DNA of 34,357 nt. Origin: Candidatus Zixiibacteriota bacterium (GTDB lineage: Bacteria > Zixibacteria > MSB-5A5 > RBG-16-43-9). Each line of letters opens with the position of its first letter. Within the stretch, counting starts at the first letter, position 1. A program made the translations under genes and the position numbers. Under the pieces are notes generated by a model. That model ran no database searches and was not told the origin of the DNA. It worked only from the letters and a program-made list of their open reading frames with translations. Where the stretch lies: positions 1 to 34,357 of the forward strand of contig JAOUFL010000001.1 of NCBI GenBank assembly GCA_029858245.1, given 5' to 3'. Below, piece after piece: positions 18,479 through 27,170 of the stretch.

Positions 18479-19132
18479 TCACAAGAAAAGTTTTTTTAAT
18501 GTTTTTTTACCTTCCTTACCCACCAGGGTTATTATGGTATCTTTCTCCCTGAGAATGGTATCTCCCTTAGGGATTATTACCTTACTTTCCCTTAAGGCTG
18601 CTATAATTATACAATCCTGAGGCAGACTTAGTTTGGAGATTTTCTTGTTCACCAGGGGAGAATCTGAAGATAGCTGGGTTTGGAAGATCTCCACTTCCCC
18701 TCCCCGCAGGGCTAAAAGCGGTATGAACATTCCTGCATCGATTTTCTCCTCGATCAGAGAACCGATGATTCGGGTGGCTGAAACTGTTGCATCCACCCCC
18801 AGACTCTGAAAGATCTCTTCATTCTTAGGGTCATTTACACGGGCAATGGTTTTGGGAATAAGATAAAGAATTTTTGCCATCTGACAGATGATCAGATTAT
18901 CCTGATCTGTCCCGGTCACTGCTACCAGGACATCAGCCCGGTTGACACCCATATCCATCAAAGTATCAAGCTCAGTCCCGTCTCCCAGGATAACCTGTTC
19001 CCCCCATTCCTCAGACAGCTTATTATATCTCTGCTGGTCTTTTTCAACTATCAGGACTTCATGTTTCTCCGACATAAGCAGCCGCGCCAGACTATAACCC
19101 ACCTGGCCACCACCTACAATGATTACATACAT
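18479..19132 (-). CDS. RCK protein, TrkA-N + TrkA-C domains (KtrA/TrkA-like K+ transport regulatory subunit)
   Basis: The N-terminal Rossmann motif MYVIIVGGGQVG (GxGxxG), the E at the end of the second strand, and a C-terminal TrkA-C-like segment (SPLVNKKISKLSLPQDCIIIAALR). SD AAGGAGAAGG upstream. Confidence 0.85.
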   Translation of the reverse strand: MYVIIVGGGQVGYSLARLLMSEKHEVLIVEKDQQRYNKLSEEWGEQVILGDGTELDTLMDMGVNRADVLVAVTGTDQDNLIICQMAKILYLIPKTIARVNDPKNEEIFQSLGVDATVSATRIIGSLIEEKIDAGMFIPLLALRGGEVEIFQTQLSSDSPLVNKKISKLSLPQDCIIIAALRESKVIIPKGDTILREKDTIITLVGKEGKKTLKKLFL

Positions 19133-19149: not shown

Positions 19150-19554
19150 TTATGCTTTATCTGATAAAAACTCCTCAATTTTTTTAGCGGAATCTATGGT
19201 TGGGCAGATAATATTCAAACCCAGTTCCTTAAATGTCTGAGCCCTTTTGGAACCATAAACTCTCAATAATATCCTGGAGATTTTATATTTTTCCCTTACC
19301 AGTTGTACAGCCATGAGATTGGTATTATCGTCATTGGTTACAGCTATGAAAGCGTCTGCTTGTTCGATTCCAGCTTTTATTAAGGCCTCCTCATCTATCC
19401 CTATGCCGGAGATGGTTTTTCCGGTAAATTCTTTATCCAGTCTTTTAAAAGAACCTGGGTCCTGATCTATGACCGAAACCTCATCCCCTTTTGAAACAAG
19501 TTGAGAGGCAACTAGTGCGCCTACTCTACTGCATCCTAAAATAACTACCTTCAT
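19150..19554 (-). CDS. RCK N-domain-only protein (TrkA-N, NAD-binding)
   Basis: MKVVILGCSRVG Rossmann start and no TrkA-C domain. I prefer the ATG at 19554 (GAGGAGAGGAAGT immediately upstream) over the TTG at 19569. Confidence 0.8.
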   Translation of the reverse strand: MKVVILGCSRVGALVASQLVSKGDEVSVIDQDPGSFKRLDKEFTGKTISGIGIDEEALIKAGIEQADAFIAVTNDDNTNLMAVQLVREKYKISRILLRVYGSKRAQTFKELGLNIICPTIDSAKKIEEFLSDKA

Positions 19555-19575
19555 ACTTCCTCTCCTCAAAAAAGA

Positions 19576-20142
19576 TTAACCTTCCTCAGGCAGTTTGTCA
19601 ATAATAACCTCACAGGGTGCTTTTCTCAGTAAGGTATCAGTTGTTCTTCCCCACAGAGATTGAACACCACGTAGGCTGGTTCGCATTCCCAGAACAATAA
19701 CATCCGCCTGGTTATCCTTAGCTGCTCGTATTATCCCCTCACCTGCTTCTCTGGCTTTCTCGATTAGAAGAACTGGAGGCAGATGGTGAAGTTCTACGAT
19801 TTCTTTCCCCCGATTTAAAGCCTGATTCGCTTTTTCCTCTGCTTCAGGCATAGGAGCATCCAGGGGCATAGTACGGGGTATCTCTATCACATATGTTAAT
19901 ACAATCTCGGCTTGATGTTCGGCACCTAACCGGCATGCTAATTCTATCCCCCTTTCAGAATAGGGCTTTCCTGAGGTTGGTACCAAAATCCTTTTCAATG
20001 TCTCAACCGACCTGCGAGCCCTTGCTACTTCTGGCTTTATCTGAGGCGGAGGATGGAGCATCCACCATAAAATTCCACCCATGCTAATGGTGAAAATTAT
20101 AGCGATTATCACTCCTAATAACGATACCTGAACCTGGGTCAT
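19576..20142 (-). CDS. Membrane-anchored universal stress protein (UspA family)
   Basis: An N-terminal TM helix (LLGVIIAIIFTISMGGILWWML) followed by a Usp fold (RILVPTSG...; C-terminal ADVIVLGMRT..G....GRTTDTLLRKAPCEVIII). The start overlaps the upstream stop as ATGA. Confidence 0.75.
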   Translation of the reverse strand: MTQVQVSLLGVIIAIIFTISMGGILWWMLHPPPQIKPEVARARRSVETLKRILVPTSGKPYSERGIELACRLGAEHQAEIVLTYVIEIPRTMPLDAPMPEAEEKANQALNRGKEIVELHHLPPVLLIEKAREAGEGIIRAAKDNQADVIVLGMRTSLRGVQSLWGRTTDTLLRKAPCEVIIDKLPEEG

Positions 20143-20360
20143 TTTCTTCTTTTCCTTAGATATTTATATACAAATCTCAAGCGGTAGATTCCAATAAATA
20201 AAAAACCTCCTCCAATTAAAAGAGTGAGGATATAAAATCCAGTGAAAAAAGAACGAATAAGGATCACCCCTCCCAAGATGGTCATTAAAACGCTGGTTAT
20301 TATCTGATAATAATCCAGGCGGGTCAGGTGATCTGGCATGTCAACCATATGCTTTCTCAT
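20139..20360 (-). CDS. Small two-TM membrane protein, translationally coupled on both sides
   Basis: 73 aa with two hydrophobic helices and a basic tail (YLRKRRK). ATGA overlaps at 20357-20360 and 20139-20142. Confidence 0.6.
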   Translation of the reverse strand: MRKHMVDMPDHLTRLDYYQIITSVLMTILGGVILIRSFFTGFYILTLLIGGGFLFIGIYRLRFVYKYLRKRRK

Positions 20361-21934
20361 TTCAAATCCACCCTCTTCTTATCCCTTTCTGCTAAGGCAT
20401 TTTTATACTGCTCTAATAAATCGAATTCCTCAGCTGAGGATAACACCTCCATCTGCTGTTTTTCCCAATTATGTTCGATGCTTTTGAAAATGGGAAACTT
20501 TTGTGATTTTCGATACCAAACGTAATAACAGAAGCATAAGATAACCCAGGCCGGTCCGGCAATTCGTCCAATGCTGTGGGTCAAAACCACCATGAACAGT
20601 ATGGTGCCCACTCCCAGGGTTCCGATTACCCCTAAAACCGGGAATAGAACTTTTCTCCCTTTGTATTTCAGTTTGATATTCAAAGGCATCTTATAGGGTC
20701 TTGGAGTCCAGGGCTCGGAAAACCTTAGCCTGATCAGGGCTATGAATACCAGGGTATAACCTAAAGTAGCCCCAAAGGCATACATATTAGCCAGGGTATC
20801 CATAGCAGATGGAGTGAGGAAGGATAAGACTGTCTCAATTAACCCGATTCCGGAAAAGACCAGGATGGTACGAATGGGGGTCTTGTATTTAGGATGAACA
20901 GCATCAAACCACGAACTGATGATTCCGAACTTGCTGAGATAATAGGTTAACCTGGAGGAGCCTACTATGCCTGTGTTGGAGGAGATAAAAAGTATCAGTG
21001 CTCCTAAAGCCGCAGCAAATGGTCCGGCGATCAAGCCAACGAATGGAATGGCTTCAGCCAAAACTGCAATCGGATTGTCGATATTTTCGGCGAACACCTG
21101 CCAGGGTAAAATCCCCAGGCCTAAGGTGGAGAACGCCACAGCAAAGATGAACACCGTGAAGATCAAGGTAATGGAGGTACGGGGTATGACCGTAGCCGGT
21201 CGTCTGGTCTCCTGTGCCACCTCGGAGATCGATTCCAAACCCACAAAGGATATTATGGCAATGGAGGAGCCATACATAAAATTATGCAAAGAGGGAAACT
21301 GGGTGCTCCATTGATAAGCCAAAAGCTCAGGGTTCCAGGCAAATAGGAAAGCCAGGATGACAAGGGCTGATTCGGTAGCAATCACCACCGCTCCTATGAC
21401 CTCATTTACAAATGAAGATTCCCTTATTCCCCTGATATTAAGCCAGATCAAAAACCCTATTAGGATAAGTGTCTCCGCACACCAGACCGGATTGATGTTG
21501 TGAAAAGGACCAATAGTTGTGACGAATGAACTGATCTCCCGACCTATAACAAAAGGCATAAAGAAATTAAGATACCCGGCAGAAGCAGTAGCGAAAAGTG
21601 CGATGTCTATGGTGTAGTCTAAGATCAAAGCAGATCCAGCCACAAATCCCCAGAAATCGCCTAAGCCGCGCAGGGTAAAGTAGGACCCCCCGCCTGCCAC
21701 CGGATAAGAGGAGGCAAGTTCAGTATAGGCTAATCCGATCATTATATAGACGATACCAGCTAAGGCGAAAACCAGACTGGTTGCACCCTGGGCATAAGCC
21801 ATCACCAAGCCTAAAGCAACGTATGTATCCGCACCCACATCCGCAAATCCCCACATATAGGAGCCCCAGACCGAGACATCCCTCCTCAGCTCTGATTTTC
21901 CCTGGCCTATAGACTCTTTAATCTTCTCTCTCAT
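20357..21934 (-). CDS. APC-superfamily permease, paralog A (KimA-like candidate K+ or amino-acid transporter)
   Basis: 525 aa with about 12 TM helices and AA_permease_2-like blocks (YPVAGGGSYF, LILDYTIDIALF). A 52-aa run is identical to paralog B (WGSYMWGF...AYTELAS). Conserved cytosolic tail EEFDLLEQYKNALAERDKK. No SD before the ATG. Confidence 0.85.
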   Translation of the reverse strand: MREKIKESIGQGKSELRRDVSVWGSYMWGFADVGADTYVALGLVMAYAQGATSLVFALAGIVYIMIGLAYTELASSYPVAGGGSYFTLRGLGDFWGFVAGSALILDYTIDIALFATASAGYLNFFMPFVIGREISSFVTTIGPFHNINPVWCAETLILIGFLIWLNIRGIRESSFVNEVIGAVVIATESALVILAFLFAWNPELLAYQWSTQFPSLHNFMYGSSIAIISFVGLESISEVAQETRRPATVIPRTSITLIFTVFIFAVAFSTLGLGILPWQVFAENIDNPIAVLAEAIPFVGLIAGPFAAALGALILFISSNTGIVGSSRLTYYLSKFGIISSWFDAVHPKYKTPIRTILVFSGIGLIETVLSFLTPSAMDTLANMYAFGATLGYTLVFIALIRLRFSEPWTPRPYKMPLNIKLKYKGRKVLFPVLGVIGTLGVGTILFMVVLTHSIGRIAGPAWVILCFCYYVWYRKSQKFPIFKSIEHNWEKQQMEVLSSAEEFDLLEQYKNALAERDKKRVDLK

Positions 21935-21963
21935 GTCGGATTATTGTGAATCAGAACCTAAAC

Positions 21964-22023
21964 AAAAAATCGCCTTAAAAACGACTCCTCCAGCTCCCCA
22001 ACATCGGCAGGGGGTTAGGCGAC
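21964..22023 (-). promoter_or_regulatory. Internally deleted remnant of the c-di-AMP riboswitch; folds as a hairpin plus U6
   Basis: The minus strand reads GUCGCCUAACCCCCUGCCGAUGUUGGGGAGCUGGAGGAGUCGUUUUUAAGGCGAUUUUUU. The first ~45 nt align with the intact copy at 23952-23908, and the core blocks are missing. Confidence 0.6.
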
Positions 22024-22036
22024 TTATTAAAAATTG

Positions 22037-22064
22037 AATATATCGAGTGGGAGAAGATTGTCAA
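22037..22064 (-). promoter_or_regulatory. Putative promoter of paralog A (duplicate of the paralog B promoter)
   Basis: Minus strand: TTGACA (22064-22059), 16 nt, TATATT (22042-22037). Same boxes and spacing as 23992-23965. Confidence 0.55.
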
Positions 22065-22092
22065 TACAAAAAAATACTTACTGATTAATCTG

Positions 22093-22125
22093 AAAAAAAA
22101 GACTTGTTGAATTCACTGGTGAATT
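22093..22125 (-). terminator. Weak terminator-like signal after paralog B
   Basis: An AT-rich 6-bp stem (22110-22115/22120-22125), with the U8 tract (plus-strand A8 at 22093-22100) 9 nt away. Poor geometry. Confidence 0.2.
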
Positions 22126-22140
22126 GGATTAAAGCTTTCC

Positions 22141-23715
22141 TCACTTTCTCCTTTTCTTATCTCTTTCAGTTAGAGCATTTTTATACTGTTCTAATAAATC
22201 ATATTCCTCAGCCGAAGTTAAAACCTCAATCTGCTCTTTCTCCCAGTCATGTTTTATACTCTTAAAAACAGGTAAACCCTCTTTTTTTCTATACCAAGCA
22301 TAATATATAAAACAGAGCAGAATCCAGGCAGGTCCGGCTATCCGCCCTATGGTATGAGTGAGAACTACCATAAAAAGAATAGTGGAAACTCCAAGCATAC
22401 CGATTACCCCCAGCACCGGGAAGTCGACTTTTCTTCCCTTATACCCTATTTTTAAATTTAAAGGCATCTTATAGGGTCTGGGGGTGTAAGGGTCTGAAAA
22501 TCTAAGCTTTATCAAAGCAACAAAGACCAGAGTATATCCTAAGGTAGCGCCAAAGGCATACATATTCCCCAGGGTGCCCATGGCTGAAGGAGTAAGAAAA
22601 GATAGAACAGTTTCGATTATCCCTATGAAAGAGAAAATAACAATTGTCCGCATAGGGGTTCTGAATTTCGAATGAATCATATTAAACCATTTGCTTATTA
22701 TGCCAAATCCGCTCAAGGAGTAGGTAAGTCTTGAAGCACCCATCACGCCGGTATTAGCGGAGATGAAAAGTATTAGTGCACCTAAAGCAGCGGCAAAAGG
22801 ACCTGCCATAAATCCAATTATAGGAATAGCCTTAGCTAATATAGCTATGGGATTATCCATATGTTCGGCAAACTCCTGCCAGGGTAAAACACCTAAGCCC
22901 AGGGTGGAGAAGGCAACTGCAAAGATAAAAACTGTAAAGATCAAGGTCAAAGAGGTACGAGGTATAATAGTTGCTGGTCTTCTGGTCTCCTGAGCCGCCT
23001 GGGAGATTGATTCCAATCCAACAAAGGAGATAATAGCCAGGGAGGAACCATACATAAAATTATGAAAGGAGGGGAACTGAGTTTTCCATTGATGGGCTAA
23101 GAGCTCCGGCCTCCAGGCAAAGAGAAATCCCATTATAACCAAGGCAGATTCTGTGATTATCACTATCGCCCCGATCACTTCATTCAGAAAAGAAGATTCT
23201 TTTATGCCCCGAACGTTAATTAATATCAAAAGCGAAATTAAAACCAAGGTCTCTATACACCAGAAGTAGTTGACATTATGCAGTGGCCCGACGGATATAA
23301 CAAAACTATCTATGCTTATTCCTAAGATGTAAGGCATAAAGAAGTTCAGATAGCCGGCTGAGGCAGTTGCAAAAAGGGCAATGTCTATGGTGTAATCTAA
23401 AAGTAATGCAGAACCACCCATAAACCCCCAGAAATCACCTAAGCCACGTAGGGTAAAGTATGGTCCTCCTCCAGCCACAGGATAGGCTGAGGCAAGCTCG
23501 GTATAAGCTAATCCGATCATTATATAGACGATACCGGCGAGGGCAAAGACCAGACTGGTTGCACCCTGTGCATAAGCCATTACCAGACCTAGGGCGACAT
23601 AGGTATCCGCACCCACATCCGCAAACCCCCACATATACGAGCCCCAGATTGTAACATCCCTTCTGAGTTCGTTTTTACCGTCCACTGGTGCAATGTTCTG
23701 GTTATTCTTCTCCAT
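22141..23715 (-). CDS. APC-superfamily permease, paralog B (KimA-like candidate), riboswitch-controlled
   Basis: Same architecture as paralog A. I prefer the ATG at 23715 (GGAGG at 23727-23723, 7 nt upstream) over the track start at 23745, whose first codons contain that SD. Confidence 0.85.
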   Translation of the reverse strand: MEKNNQNIAPVDGKNELRRDVTIWGSYMWGFADVGADTYVALGLVMAYAQGATSLVFALAGIVYIMIGLAYTELASAYPVAGGGPYFTLRGLGDFWGFMGGSALLLDYTIDIALFATASAGYLNFFMPYILGISIDSFVISVGPLHNVNYFWCIETLVLISLLILINVRGIKESSFLNEVIGAIVIITESALVIMGFLFAWRPELLAHQWKTQFPSFHNFMYGSSLAIISFVGLESISQAAQETRRPATIIPRTSLTLIFTVFIFAVAFSTLGLGVLPWQEFAEHMDNPIAILAKAIPIIGFMAGPFAAALGALILFISANTGVMGASRLTYSLSGFGIISKWFNMIHSKFRTPMRTIVIFSFIGIIETVLSFLTPSAMGTLGNMYAFGATLGYTLVFVALIKLRFSDPYTPRPYKMPLNLKIGYKGRKVDFPVLGVIGMLGVSTILFMVVLTHTIGRIAGPAWILLCFIYYAWYRKKEGLPVFKSIKHDWEKEQIEVLTSAEEYDLLEQYKNALTERDKKRRK

Positions 23716-23775
23716 AGGCAGACCTCCTTCCTGCTTTTTTGACATTAAAGATTTTGGAAAGGGGGGTACTAAAAT

Positions 23776-23805
23776 AAAAAAAGACCAGAGGAAACCTCTT
23801 GGTCT
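23776..23805 (-). terminator. Intrinsic terminator forming the riboswitch expression platform
   Basis: Minus strand: AGACCAAGAGG-UUU-CCUCUGGUCU (10 bp, one bulged A) followed by U7. Confidence 0.8.
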
Positions 23806-23829
23806 AAAAGATTTTTTAGTTCCTCTCTC

Positions 23830-23952
23830 CTTACGCCTACGAAGTTAGCTGACGGGCTCGGGTCAAGAGATAACCCTATTCGCCTCTGGCGAAATTCGCC
23901 CCAATTACTTGGGTCCTCCGTCTCCCCGCCTTCGGCGGGGGGTTAGGCGATT
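23830..23952 (-). promoter_or_regulatory. ydaO-yuaA (kimA/ktrA leader) class c-di-AMP riboswitch aptamer
   Basis: The minus strand contains AAUCGCCUAA, CCCCGCC-GAA-GGCGGGG, GGAGGACCCA, UGGGGCGAAU and GACCCGAGCCCGUCAGCUAACUUCGUAGGCGU. P1 is CGCCUA (23949-23944) / UAGGCG (23839-23834). Confidence 0.8.
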
Positions 23953-23964
23953 TATTAAAAATTT

Positions 23965-23992
23965 AATATAAATATTAAAAAAGAATTGTCAA
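23965..23992 (-). promoter_or_regulatory. Putative promoter of the riboswitch-led transcript
   Basis: Minus strand: TTGACA (23992-23987), 16 nt, TATATT (23970-23965). Confidence 0.55.
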
Positions 23993-24147
23993 TAGAAATC
24001 TTAAATAATTTGAAGGTGTAAGTCTTTATATGTGAAGGAATTCTGGAGTTGCCTGATTTGTAAAGCAGCATATCACTGGGTTGAGGGAAACAAGAGATAC
24101 TAAACTTAGCGGCAGACATCCGTATTTGTTCAAATAGACTATTTCTA

Positions 24148-24176
24148 TTGACTTCTCTTTGCTTGAGCTTTAATTT
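24148..24176 (+). promoter_or_regulatory. Possible hutU promoter
   Basis: TTGACT (24148-24153), 17 nt, TAATTT (24171-24176). Confidence 0.3.
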
Positions 24177-24234
24177 AATTTTTTGAGATACACCAAAGAG
24201 ACTTCGTTTTGGTTTTTCAAGATTGGAGGTTTAT

Positions 24235-25893
24235 ATGGAATATGCCCCGATAAAAGCTCCCAGAGGAATAGATTTATCCTGCAAGGGCTGGCATCAGGAA
24301 GCAGCATTGAGGATGTTACAGAATAACTTAGATGAAGAAGTAGCTGAAAAACCTCAGGAGCTGATAATTTATGGAGGAAGCGGCAAAGCCGCTCGAAACT
24401 GGGAATGTTATTATGCTATTGTGGAGGCTTTAAAGAATTTAGAAAATGACCAGACTCTTCTGGTTCAATCCGGCAAACCAGTGGGTATTTTCAAAACCTA
24501 CTCCTATGCCCCTCGTGTATTAATCTCCAATTCAATGATGGTTCCTGCCTGGGCAAACTGGGAGAAATTCAGGGAACTGGAAAGATTAGGCTTGATTATG
24601 TTCGGGCAGATGACTGCAGGGTCCTGGATTTATATAGGGACACAGGGAATTCTGCAGGGGACTTATGAGACCTTTGCCTCTGCTGCGAAAAAGCATTTCA
24701 ACGGAGATCTGAAGGGAAAATTCATCCTGACCGGTGGTATGGGAGGAATGGGTGGAGCTCAGCCCCTGGCTGTGACTATGAACGGTGGAGTAGTTTTGTG
24801 TGTGGAGGTGGATAAAAAAAGGATAGAGAGGAGACTCTCTAAGGGATATTGCAATAAAATGGTGGAAAGCCTGGACGAGGCGCTGGATATGGTTCTGAAA
24901 GCCAAGAACAAAGGCAAAGCCATCTCAGTGGGTTTAGTGGCAAACTGTGCGGATACCCATCCGGAGATATTAAAAAGAGGGATAATCCCGGATATAGTCA
25001 CTGACCAGACCAGTGCGCATGACGAGCTGAACGGGTATGTTCCAGCAGGTATCCCCTATGAGGAAGCTTTGAGATTGAGAAATGAAAACCCGGATGACTA
25101 TATCCAGAGGTCGATGGAGTCAATTGCCAGACATGTTGAGGCGATGTTAGGCTTTTTGAAAGCCGGTTCTGTGGTATTCGATTACGGCAATAACATAAGG
25201 GGTCAGGCAAAAAAGGCAGGATTGGAGAATGCCTTTGATTTTCCTGGCTTTGTCCCGGCTTATATCAGACCCTTGTTCTGCCAGGGCAAAGGTCCTTTCA
25301 GATGGGCAGCCCTGTCTGGTGACCCGGAGGATATAAGGATAACGGATAAAGTAGTCTTAAGGGAGTTCAAGCAGGATGAGCCTCTGTGCAGGTGGATAAA
25401 GTTAGCCTCTAAAAAAGTCCAGTTCCAGGGACTTCCTGCAAGAATCTGCTGGCTTGGTTATGGAGAAAGAGCGCATTTCGGGGATATAATAAACTCAATG
25501 GTTAGAAGAGGTAGGATAAAAGCGCCGGTGGTAATCGGCAGAGACCATTTAGACTGCGGTTCAGTTGCCTCCCCTTACAGGGAAACCGAGGGAATGAAAG
25601 ATGGCTCAGACGTGATAGCAGACTGGCCCATCCTGAACGGGCTTTTGAATGCAGTCTCCGGTGCCTCCTGGGTCTCAGTGCATCACGGAGGCGGAGTAGG
25701 GATTGGAAATTCCATCCACGCGGGAATGGTCATCGTAGCAGATGGAACAAAGGATATGAAGCTGAGGCTGGAAAGGGTCTTGACCAACGACCCGGGCACG
25801 GGTGTTGCGCGACACGCAGATGCCGGATATGAGGAGGCAATTAAAGTGGCAAAGGAAAAGGGAGTAAAGATACCGATGTTGAGAGAAAAGTAA
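24235..25893 (+). CDS. hutU: Urocanate hydratase
   Basis: Length of about 552 aa. Hallmark [16 protein letters not shown]-binding block, [16 protein letters not shown] and [13 protein letters not shown] prefer the ATG at 24235 (GGAGG at 24225-24229) over the TTG at 24223. Confidence 0.95.
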
Positions 25894-25910
25894 GAAGTGA
25901 GACGTAAGAC

Positions 25911-27170
25911 GTGAAACGAATTACTTTATTGCTCAAAAACGCCAGACAGCTTTTGACTTTATCCTCTGACAAAAAAGCTCCCCGCAGGAGTAGGGAGATG
26001 GAGGAACTGGGACTGATTGAGGATGGGGCAGTTGCGGTCTCCGGAAAAAAGATTGTAGCTGTTGGGAAAACTAAAGATGTTCTTGCAAAGGTCAAAATAG
26101 ACCGCAAGACAAAAATCATAAATTCCGAAGACAAAGTCGTTCTTCCTGGCTTTGTGGACTGCCACACCCATCCGATTTTCGGAGCTACCAGGGAGGAGGA
26201 GTTTGAATTAAGGGTAAAAGGTAAAACCTACGAGGAGATCGCAAAAGCCGGTGGTGGTATAAGGTCAAGTGTACGGTCTTTGCGAGAGTTATCTAAGGCG
26301 GAATTGATAGAATTAGCTCTGCCCCGTTTGGATAGATTTTTATCCTTCGGCACCACCACGATTGAGGCAAAATCAGGTTACGGTCTTTCTCTGAAAGACG
26401 AGATAAAAATTCTGGAAGTAATCAAAAAGTTAGACCAGATACACCCGCTGGACTTGATTCCGACTTTCCTGGGTGCACACGAAATCCCGGATGAGTATAT
26501 AGATAAAAGAGAAGAATATATTGATTTTTTGATAAACCAGATGATTCCTGAAGTTGCTAAAAGAAAATTAGCTCTTTTCTGCGATGTATTCTGCGAGAAA
26601 AATGTCTTCAGCCTGGAGGAATCTAAAAAGATAATGGAGACAGCTAAAAGATATGGATTGAAGCCAAGACTTCACGCCGACCAGTTAAGCTCTTTGGGTG
26701 GTGCAGAATTGGCTGGAGAAGTTGGTGCCATCTCAGCAGACCATCTGGAATATATCTCCGATTCGGGTATTGAGAAGATGAAAGAGTGTGGAACGATTGC
26801 AGTTCTATTACCCGGTTCAGTTTTTGGATTGGGTAAAGATAATTACCCTCCGGCACGTAAAATGATTAATAAGGGATTACCCGTGGCATTAGCCACAGAT
26901 TTCAATCCCGGCAGCTCTTTTACCGAATCGATGCCGATTATTTTGAGCTTAGCCTGTTTGAAAATGAAGCTTACCCCGGCAGAAGCCATAACCGCAGCTA
27001 CTGTTAATTCCGCCTATGCCATAGACAGAGGAGATTCGATCGGCAGTTTAGAAAAAGGTAAAAAGGCAGATATGGTTATCTGGGATATCAAAAATTACAA
27101 GGAGATTCCCTATCATTACGGAGTCAACCTGGTTGATAAGGTCATCAAAAACGGAGAGATGATAAGATGA
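25911..27170 (+). CDS. hutI: Imidazolonepropionase
   Basis: Amidohydrolase metal ligands VDCHTHP, KSGYGL, HADQL and ATDFNPGS. GTG start; the N-terminal LLLKNARQLLT matches the conserved HutI N-terminus. Confidence 0.9.
   Translation: MKRITLLLKNARQLLTLSSDKKAPRRSREMEELGLIEDGAVAVSGKKIVAVGKTKDVLAKVKIDRKTKIINSEDKVVLPGFVDCHTHPIFGATREEEFELRVKGKTYEEIAKAGGGIRSSVRSLRELSKAELIELALPRLDRFLSFGTTTIEAKSGYGLSLKDEIKILEVIKKLDQIHPLDLIPTFLGAHEIPDEYIDKREEYIDFLINQMIPEVAKRKLALFCDVFCEKNVFSLEESKKIMETAKRYGLKPRLHADQLSSLGGAELAGEVGAISADHLEYISDSGIEKMKECGTIAVLLPGSVFGLGKDNYPPARKMINKGLPVALATDFNPGSSFTESMPIILSLACLKMKLTPAEAITAATVNSAYAIDRGDSIGSLEKGKKADMVIWDIKNYKEIPYHYGVNLVDKVIKNGEMIR

Follow-up and report, generated by a model that had tools for sequence, protein, structure and literature searches.

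A stretch of RNA encoded on the minus strand at 23959-23818, in the leader of a permease operon of a Candidatus Zixiibacteriota genome, is a full-length member of the c-di-AMP (ydaO/yuaA) riboswitch class. These positions are those of the window, i.e., the whole 34,357-nucleotide stretch of DNA that was analysed, and all features below lie on its minus strand unless stated otherwise. With ligand binding, direction and termination carried over from the tested members of Bacillus subtilis and Bacillus thuringiensis, the leader is very probably a transcriptional OFF switch placed ahead of a gene for an APC-superfamily permease (permease B). The switch itself is ordinary and extends a thoroughly studied class to the candidate phylum Zixibacteria. 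Through its placement, a permease-Usp-RCK module that is widespread but uncharacterised becomes linked to the c-di-AMP/potassium-osmotic circuit, and this in genomes in which none of the usual K+ importers was detected; riboswitch regulons have repeatedly exposed the functions of unannotated genes.

The aptamer is a full-length member of the c-di-AMP class

The whole window was searched with cmscan against all 4227 Rfam families, which placed a match to the c-di-AMP riboswitch family RF00379 at 23818..23959 with a score of 98 bits (gathering score 38) and an E-value of 3e-22. The match spans model positions 1-134 of 134 and is not truncated. No Rfam family other than RF00379 rose above threshold in the window, and in a permissive Rfam rescan of 21700-24200 every other match had E > 3. 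A preliminary description of this DNA had assigned the leader to the ydaO class, and the Rfam search over the full model bears that assignment out.

In the CM alignment, P1 is formed by CGCC (23949..23946) with GGCG (23837..23834). The P2 hairpin occupies 23940..23924, P3 pairs ACGGAG (23921..23916) with CUUCGU (23844..23839), and P6 and P7 lie at 23893..23879 and 23876..23860, respectively; the conserved block CCCGUCAGCUAAC follows at 23856..23844, and the aptamer ends in a purine 3' tail, UAAGGAGAGAGGAAC, at 23833..23819. The conserved internal-loop blocks ACGR, GGGGYGAAU and CCCGA.CCCG.CAGCUAAC are all present in the alignment, so the hallmark blocks that the preliminary description had recognised are indeed there. 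Most helices of the ydaO-type fold are also recovered from energy alone: the minimum free energy (MFE) secondary structure of the leader contains P2, P3, P5, P6 and P7 as well as the terminator hairpin, and scores z = -3.8 relative to shuffles.

Comparison among relatives gives further support to the helices, since, among 27 aligned aptamers, pairing is kept by compensatory changes on both sides at 18 of the 32 consensus pairs, mainly within P2 and P6. In the ydaO class, the published consensus includes a pseudoknot that joins the P7 loop to the purine-rich 3' tail, and each aptamer binds two c-di-AMP molecules with high affinity. The two complementary partners of this pseudoknot, UCUCU in the P7 loop and AGAGA in the tail, are both present here; they hardly vary within the clade and therefore leave no covariation signal for the pseudoknot. 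By analogy with the rest of the class, the aptamer at 23959-23818 would be expected to bind c-di-AMP.

Promoter, terminator and start codon

Directly upstream of the aptamer, a consensus scan found a sigma-70-type promoter, TTGACA-16 nt-TATATT, at 23965..23992 (11/12 matches), with the -35 element at 23992..23987 and the -10 element at 23970..23965. From this spacing, transcription of the permease B leader would start near 23958, at the first aptamer model position. The same promoter had been named in the preliminary description, and the leader that was written out there as RNA agrees exactly with the minus strand from 23992 to 23713. On the other side of the promoter and divergent from it, hutU (urocanase) and hutI (imidazolonepropionase) occupy 24223-27170 of the plus strand; hutU also lies next to the riboswitch locus in the same-family genomes G001 and G006.

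Downstream of the aptamer, both folding and scanning located an intrinsic terminator at 23776..23805, the putative expression platform, which reads AGACCAAGAGG-UUU-CCUCUGGUCU followed by U's. Its hairpin spans 23805..23782 and its U7 tract ends at 23776. The stem consists of 10 pairs and a single bulged A, with a core of modest stability at -10.7 kcal/mol; the consensus scan by itself reports a hairpin with a T-run at 23799..23777. This hairpin with its U7 tract had been described beforehand, as had its position downstream of P1, and both hold, with the correction that the spacer measures 28 nt instead of about 25 nt. The terminator lies wholly outside the aptamer and has no nucleotides in common with it.

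A Shine-Dalgarno sequence, GGAGG, can be read in the sequence at 23723..23727, downstream of the terminator and, as previously noted, 7 nt before the ATG at 23715. Because the terminator precedes the Shine-Dalgarno sequence, it can act only on transcription. The resulting order of promoter, aptamer, terminator and Shine-Dalgarno sequence is the OFF-type layout that the preliminary description had pointed out, and it is conserved in relatives. The mechanical ORF of permease B reaches farther upstream to an in-frame ATG at 23745, which has no Shine-Dalgarno sequence. We take 23715 to be the more likely start, since, when the protein is read from there, its alignments with homologs set in at residues 1-14, and since GGAGG precedes that ATG.

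Proposed mechanism and alternative explanations

In the mechanism that we propose, the promoter at 23992-23965 would start a leader RNA whose first ~140 nt would fold into the canonical c-di-AMP aptamer. At high c-di-AMP, the ligand-bound aptamer would let the hairpin-U7 terminator at 23805-23776 form, and transcription would then end before the ribosome-binding site of permease B. At low c-di-AMP, RNA polymerase would read into permease B and then, by read-through, into the operon behind it. The signal would be made by the CdaA and degraded by the PgpH-like enzyme that the genome encodes. The OFF reading rests on the terminator being able to act only on transcription and on the behaviour of the B. 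thuringiensis kdp riboswitch, on which c-di-AMP lifts termination from 27% to 63% in vitro (PMC6488665). The class as a whole is associated with K+ and amino-acid transporters (PMC7266159).

An antiterminator was sought in the leader. In an alternative fold, the purine tail (AAGGAGAGAGGA) pairs with the 3' arm of the terminator and the first U's, which is less stable than the terminator fold by only about 2 kcal/mol (-13.9 vs -15.6 kcal/mol locally and -65.1 vs -67.3 kcal/mol for the whole leader). We rejected this pairing as a shared antiterminator, as the complementarity does not exceed that of composition-matched shuffles across 23 related leaders (mean z -0.07) and the leaders of same-family relatives lack it. 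For the host leader, the modelled pairing is an unconfirmed lead. Duplex searches of the terminator 5' arm against the aptamer returned partners that were inconsistent among relatives, and no conserved antiterminator was found in them.

The lack of a demonstrable conserved antiterminator pairing, together with a terminator that stands 28 nt from P1 and does not overlap the aptamer, is what would be seen if the aptamer were genuine and bound c-di-AMP while the hairpin-U7 element were a constitutive attenuator or pause, with control exerted via RNA stability or Rho. We consider this unlikely, as the order of aptamer then terminator is kept in 22 of 27 cases despite spacers of ~13 to >180 nt, and as tested class members use ligand-promoted intrinsic termination (PMC6488665). 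It is also conceivable that this copy is decaying or non-functional and still scores in Rfam, or that its ligand is something other than c-di-AMP. Decay of the element does occur in this lineage, since there is a remnant copy 1.9 kb downstream and there are degenerate copies in related tandem loci. The copy under study, however, holds the top score (98 bits) of the 27 matches in the relatives search, has all strongly conserved core blocks, belongs to a clade in which substitutions at paired positions are compensatory, and retains an intact promoter, terminator and downstream gene, all of which makes this reading very unlikely.

Least likely of these alternatives, and in our view hardly credible, is an ON switch, through which c-di-AMP would induce the permease operon. 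Such induction at high c-di-AMP would be physiologically sensible if the permease exports a cation or an osmolyte, but it would require the ligand-bound aptamer to sequester part of a terminator that lies wholly outside it. We know of no ON example among c-di-AMP riboswitches. The copies in relatives also precede the K+ uptake genes kdpAB and kimA, which are repressed by c-di-AMP in known systems, and the tested B. thuringiensis member is an OFF switch (PMC6488665).

The riboswitch in related genomes and the host's c-di-AMP system

RF00379 was found in 23 of 40 related genomes, including 5/8 genomes of the same family (f1) and 17/20 of the sister family (f2). At least 16 of the 27 matches lie directly upstream of a permease B ortholog, as judged by tblastn or ORF mapping, and several further leaders have permease N-terminal codons within 260 nt downstream. 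In most relatives, the aptamer is preceded at the same distance by a TTGACA/TATAAT-like promoter, and the terminator design GACC...GGUC plus U6-7 recurs behind 22 of the 27 related aptamers, at spacers ranging from ~13 to >180 nt. This conservation and the compensatory pairs together indicate that the riboswitch is genuine, is subject to selection and regularly accompanies the operon in the order.

The f2 leaders of G016, G018, G019 and G024-G029 (L014, L023, L024, L022, L019, L011, L015, L018) have aptamer-terminator spacers of 60-190 nt. These expanded spacers contain repeated AACGGAT / ATCCGTT, direct and inverted, between GTCAACGGA and TCCGTTGAC. The repeats may stem from the insertion of a repeat element or may serve as sites for protein binding.

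Some copies precede other genes. The second RF00379 copy of G009 (L035, contig C47) precedes kdpA-kdpB, the copy of G012 (L037, contig C25) precedes a KdpA-like frame with 37% identity, and the copy of G039 (L034, contig C1) precedes a 682-aa KimA homolog (6S3K, E 9.8e-60). The permease-Usp-RCK module itself is found under the riboswitch in two Zixibacteria families and in one Terriglobia MAG, the latter being the exception to a module that outside Zixibacteria mostly occurs without the riboswitch. The aptamer of the Terriglobia MAG scores 84 bits in Rfam and only reaches E 1.7e-12 against a Zixibacteria sequence profile, a divergence which suggests that its riboswitch is not a recent transfer.

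The host assembly is a Candidatus Zixiibacteriota MAG of 2.2 Mb in 297 contigs that is 90% complete, and exactly one copy of RF00379 is present in it. It encodes a CdaA of 257 aa with CdaA_N and DAC domains on contig C292 and a 7TM-HD PgpH-like protein on contig C40. With these and the riboswitch, the host has the means for synthesis and degradation of c-di-AMP as well as an RNA receptor for it. In the literature searched, no paper combines 'Zixibacteria' with 'c-di-AMP'.

Permease B is a CAT-like transporter with an acidic TM1

Permease B, the first gene under the riboswitch (22141..23715, 524 aa), belongs to the APC superfamily, with PF13520 (AA_permease_2) matching residues 38-470 at 122 bits (cut-off 27); no NCBIfam equivalog reached its cut-off for this protein. 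Genomes of the same family have one permease each, which is the ortholog of permease B and is 88-90% identical to it. The preliminary description had likened the regulated gene to KimA as an APC permease. The superfamily assignment stands, and the comparison with KimA is true at that level only, because, among solved structures, those of cationic amino-acid transporters and of GkApcT (9SQH, 6F34 and 5OQT, at 5e-19 to 2e-15) come nearest and are far closer than the KimA structure 6S3K. KimA orthology was rejected on this basis, 6S3K having been matched only at E 0.064 and 15 bits as against 5e-19 for the CAT-type transporters; the riboswitch-linked permease of G039 served as a positive control for the search and matched 6S3K at 9.8e-60. 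The large C-terminal cytoplasmic domain of the KimA type is also absent from permease B, which ends at 524 aa with a charged tail of ~55 residues, while KimA has 607 aa.

In APC amino-acid transporters, the G-x-G segment of TM1 cradles the carboxylate of the substrate. TM1 of permease B reads WGFADVGADTY (window ~23640-23600, residues ~26-40) and does not contain the CAT/GkApcT motif IG[AT]G[VI][YF], the aligned segment being D-V-G-A-D-T-Y. An Asp thus takes the place of the second Gly of G-x-G, and there is an extra Asp upstream. The pattern WG[FY]ADVGA[DN]x[YF] was found in 28/28 family members examined, across phylum labels, with D33 invariant. The replacement of G-x-G by acidic side chains suggests that the substrate is a cation and has no carboxylate. 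For its part, KimA uses the TM1 residues Asp D36 and Tyr Y43 for K+, and the two proteins are alike in having an acidic TM1 residue followed 6-7 positions on by a Tyr, D33...Y39 in permease B and D36...Y43 in KimA (6S3K; PMC6994465). We would like to note that this is a resemblance between sequences and not a test.

The operon and its possible role in potassium uptake

The operon continues with a 73-aa ORF (20360..20139), a Usp gene (20142..19576), a gene for a TrkA_N-only RCK protein (RCK_N, 19569..19150) and one for a TrkA_N+TrkA_C RCK protein (RCK_NC, 19132..18479), the latter three identified by domain matches. The gene order permease / 73-aa / Usp / RCK_N / RCK_NC is common to same-family genomes and recurs in loci that bear the labels Edwardsbacteria, Zixibacteria RBG-1, Eubacteriales, Anaerolineae/Anaerolineales, Terriglobia and WOR-3; the module order is kept across at least seven phylum labels.

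Neither a TrkH/KtrB pore nor Kup was detected in the host or in the four f1 genomes G001, G003, G005 and G006 (90-98% complete MAGs, of which one consists of a single contig). KdpA turned up in just two of the five f1 genomes, G003 and G005, and hence not in the host. In MAGs of this completeness, a missing match does not prove that the gene is absent. With no TrkH/KtrB and no Kup detected, the two RCK proteins of the operon appear without a canonical pore partner. A role in the transport of K+ or a related cation can be argued mainly from the fact that all other cargoes found for this riboswitch in the host's taxonomic class are K+ importers (kdpAB, KimA). As such, we tentatively raise the possibility, which we hold with considerable doubt, that the module is a new c-di-AMP-controlled uptake system for a cation, most likely K+, in which an acidic-TM1 CAT-like APC permease would work with the 73-aa protein and the Usp, both in the membrane, and with an RCK ring made of two parts.

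Permease A and the loss of a second riboswitch

A second permease gene, permease A, lies at 20357..21934 and encodes a protein of 525 aa that is 79% identical to permease B. Upstream of it, a consensus scan found a second TTGACA-16-TATATT promoter at 22064..22037 (11/12), followed at 22029..21983 by a riboswitch relic that corresponds to the initial ~47 nt of the aptamer. The relic keeps the 5' strand of P1, P2 in degraded form and the beginning of P3 and then breaks off, leaving the leader of permease A with neither an aptamer core nor a terminator. It yields no RF00379 match even at E <= 10, it matches a clade-specific nhmmer profile at positions 3-46 only (E 0.0024), and its fold is no better than those of shuffles (z = +0.28). 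Transcription of permease A and the Usp/RCK genes from the second promoter is thus probably independent of c-di-AMP. Relatives with a single permease, by comparison, have the entire operon behind the switch; G001, G003, G005 and G006 have one B-type permease each. After the stop codon of permease B (22125-22090), there is an A/T-rich hairpin, AATTCA-CCAG-TGAATT, with a U8 tract 9 nt later. Since this hairpin is at best a weak terminator, read-through from the riboswitch transcript into permease A is plausible.

Phylogenetically, permease A falls into a clade with f2-family copies (SH-aLRT 100), to which it has 90-92% amino-acid identity (L039, L040, L041, L047, L059-L071). A recent in-genome duplication was rejected as its origin, the AU test of an A+B clade giving a delta lnL of 150 and p 1.5e-5 for a group that was named after the tree had been seen. 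A recent transfer from any of the sampled genomes is not supported either, as the closest A-type gene is 82% identical at the nucleotide level, about as much as permease B is to its same-family orthologs. The relic promoter and 5' leader are of f1 type, being 84-85% identical to those of G003/G005 and 79% identical to the host's own B leader. With a gene from the f2 clade and a leader remnant of f1 type, the permease A locus is a mosaic, and its history may involve an older transfer or differential loss. The junction between the relic and permease A may otherwise be a chimeric assembly; an exact 24-mer across it had no match in metagenome contigs, a set from which records near the host genome may be left out. 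Such a chimera, however, presupposes two breakpoints, and similarly decayed leaders are found in independent contigs.

A-type genes in metagenome contigs have their own intact riboswitch in 10 of ~15 loci. Tandem permease pairs also recur in related populations (L033 (G027), L072, L075, L077, L078, L080-L083, L065, L069), and their first copy always has an intact riboswitch. The second copies vary: two intact switches are present in G027 and L080-L082, no riboswitch is detectable before the second copy in G030, G020, L065, L069 and L075, the second copy of L072 has a degenerate aptamer reduced to its 3' part with the terminator intact, and that of L077 has a weak riboswitch match. This variation indicates that the second switch was lost repeatedly and by different deletions. 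The relic and the decayed tandem copies form a small natural series of the loss of a duplicated riboswitch.

Comparison with known riboswitch systems

The Firmicute ydaO/kimA riboswitches resemble the Zixibacteria leader in matching RF00379 over the full model, in the order of promoter, aptamer, intrinsic terminator and Shine-Dalgarno sequence, and in standing before a 12-TM transporter of the APC superfamily. The system described here differs in that its transporter is not a KimA ortholog (6S3K, E 0.064), its host is a Zixibacteria MAG, and its operon also encodes Usp and two RCK proteins. The B. thuringiensis kdpFABC riboswitch (PMC6488665) likewise has an aptamer and then a hairpin-U-tract terminator in its 5' UTR, and RF00379 copies also precede Kdp genes within Zixibacteria, in G009 and G012. 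The OFF behaviour was shown by experiment in B. thuringiensis, and the cargo of the predicted Zixibacteria OFF switch is a permease/Usp/RCK operon and not Kdp. KimA, a K+/H+ symporter of the KUP family (6S3K), shares with permease B the APC/LeuT-fold superfamily and a position behind a c-di-AMP riboswitch, although the two proteins have no significant sequence similarity and permease B is without the KimA-type cytoplasmic domain. The novelty of the locus is that a textbook c-di-AMP switch is joined to an uncharacterised permease-Usp-RCK module in two Zixibacteria families, and the placement of the riboswitch hints at the function of that operon.
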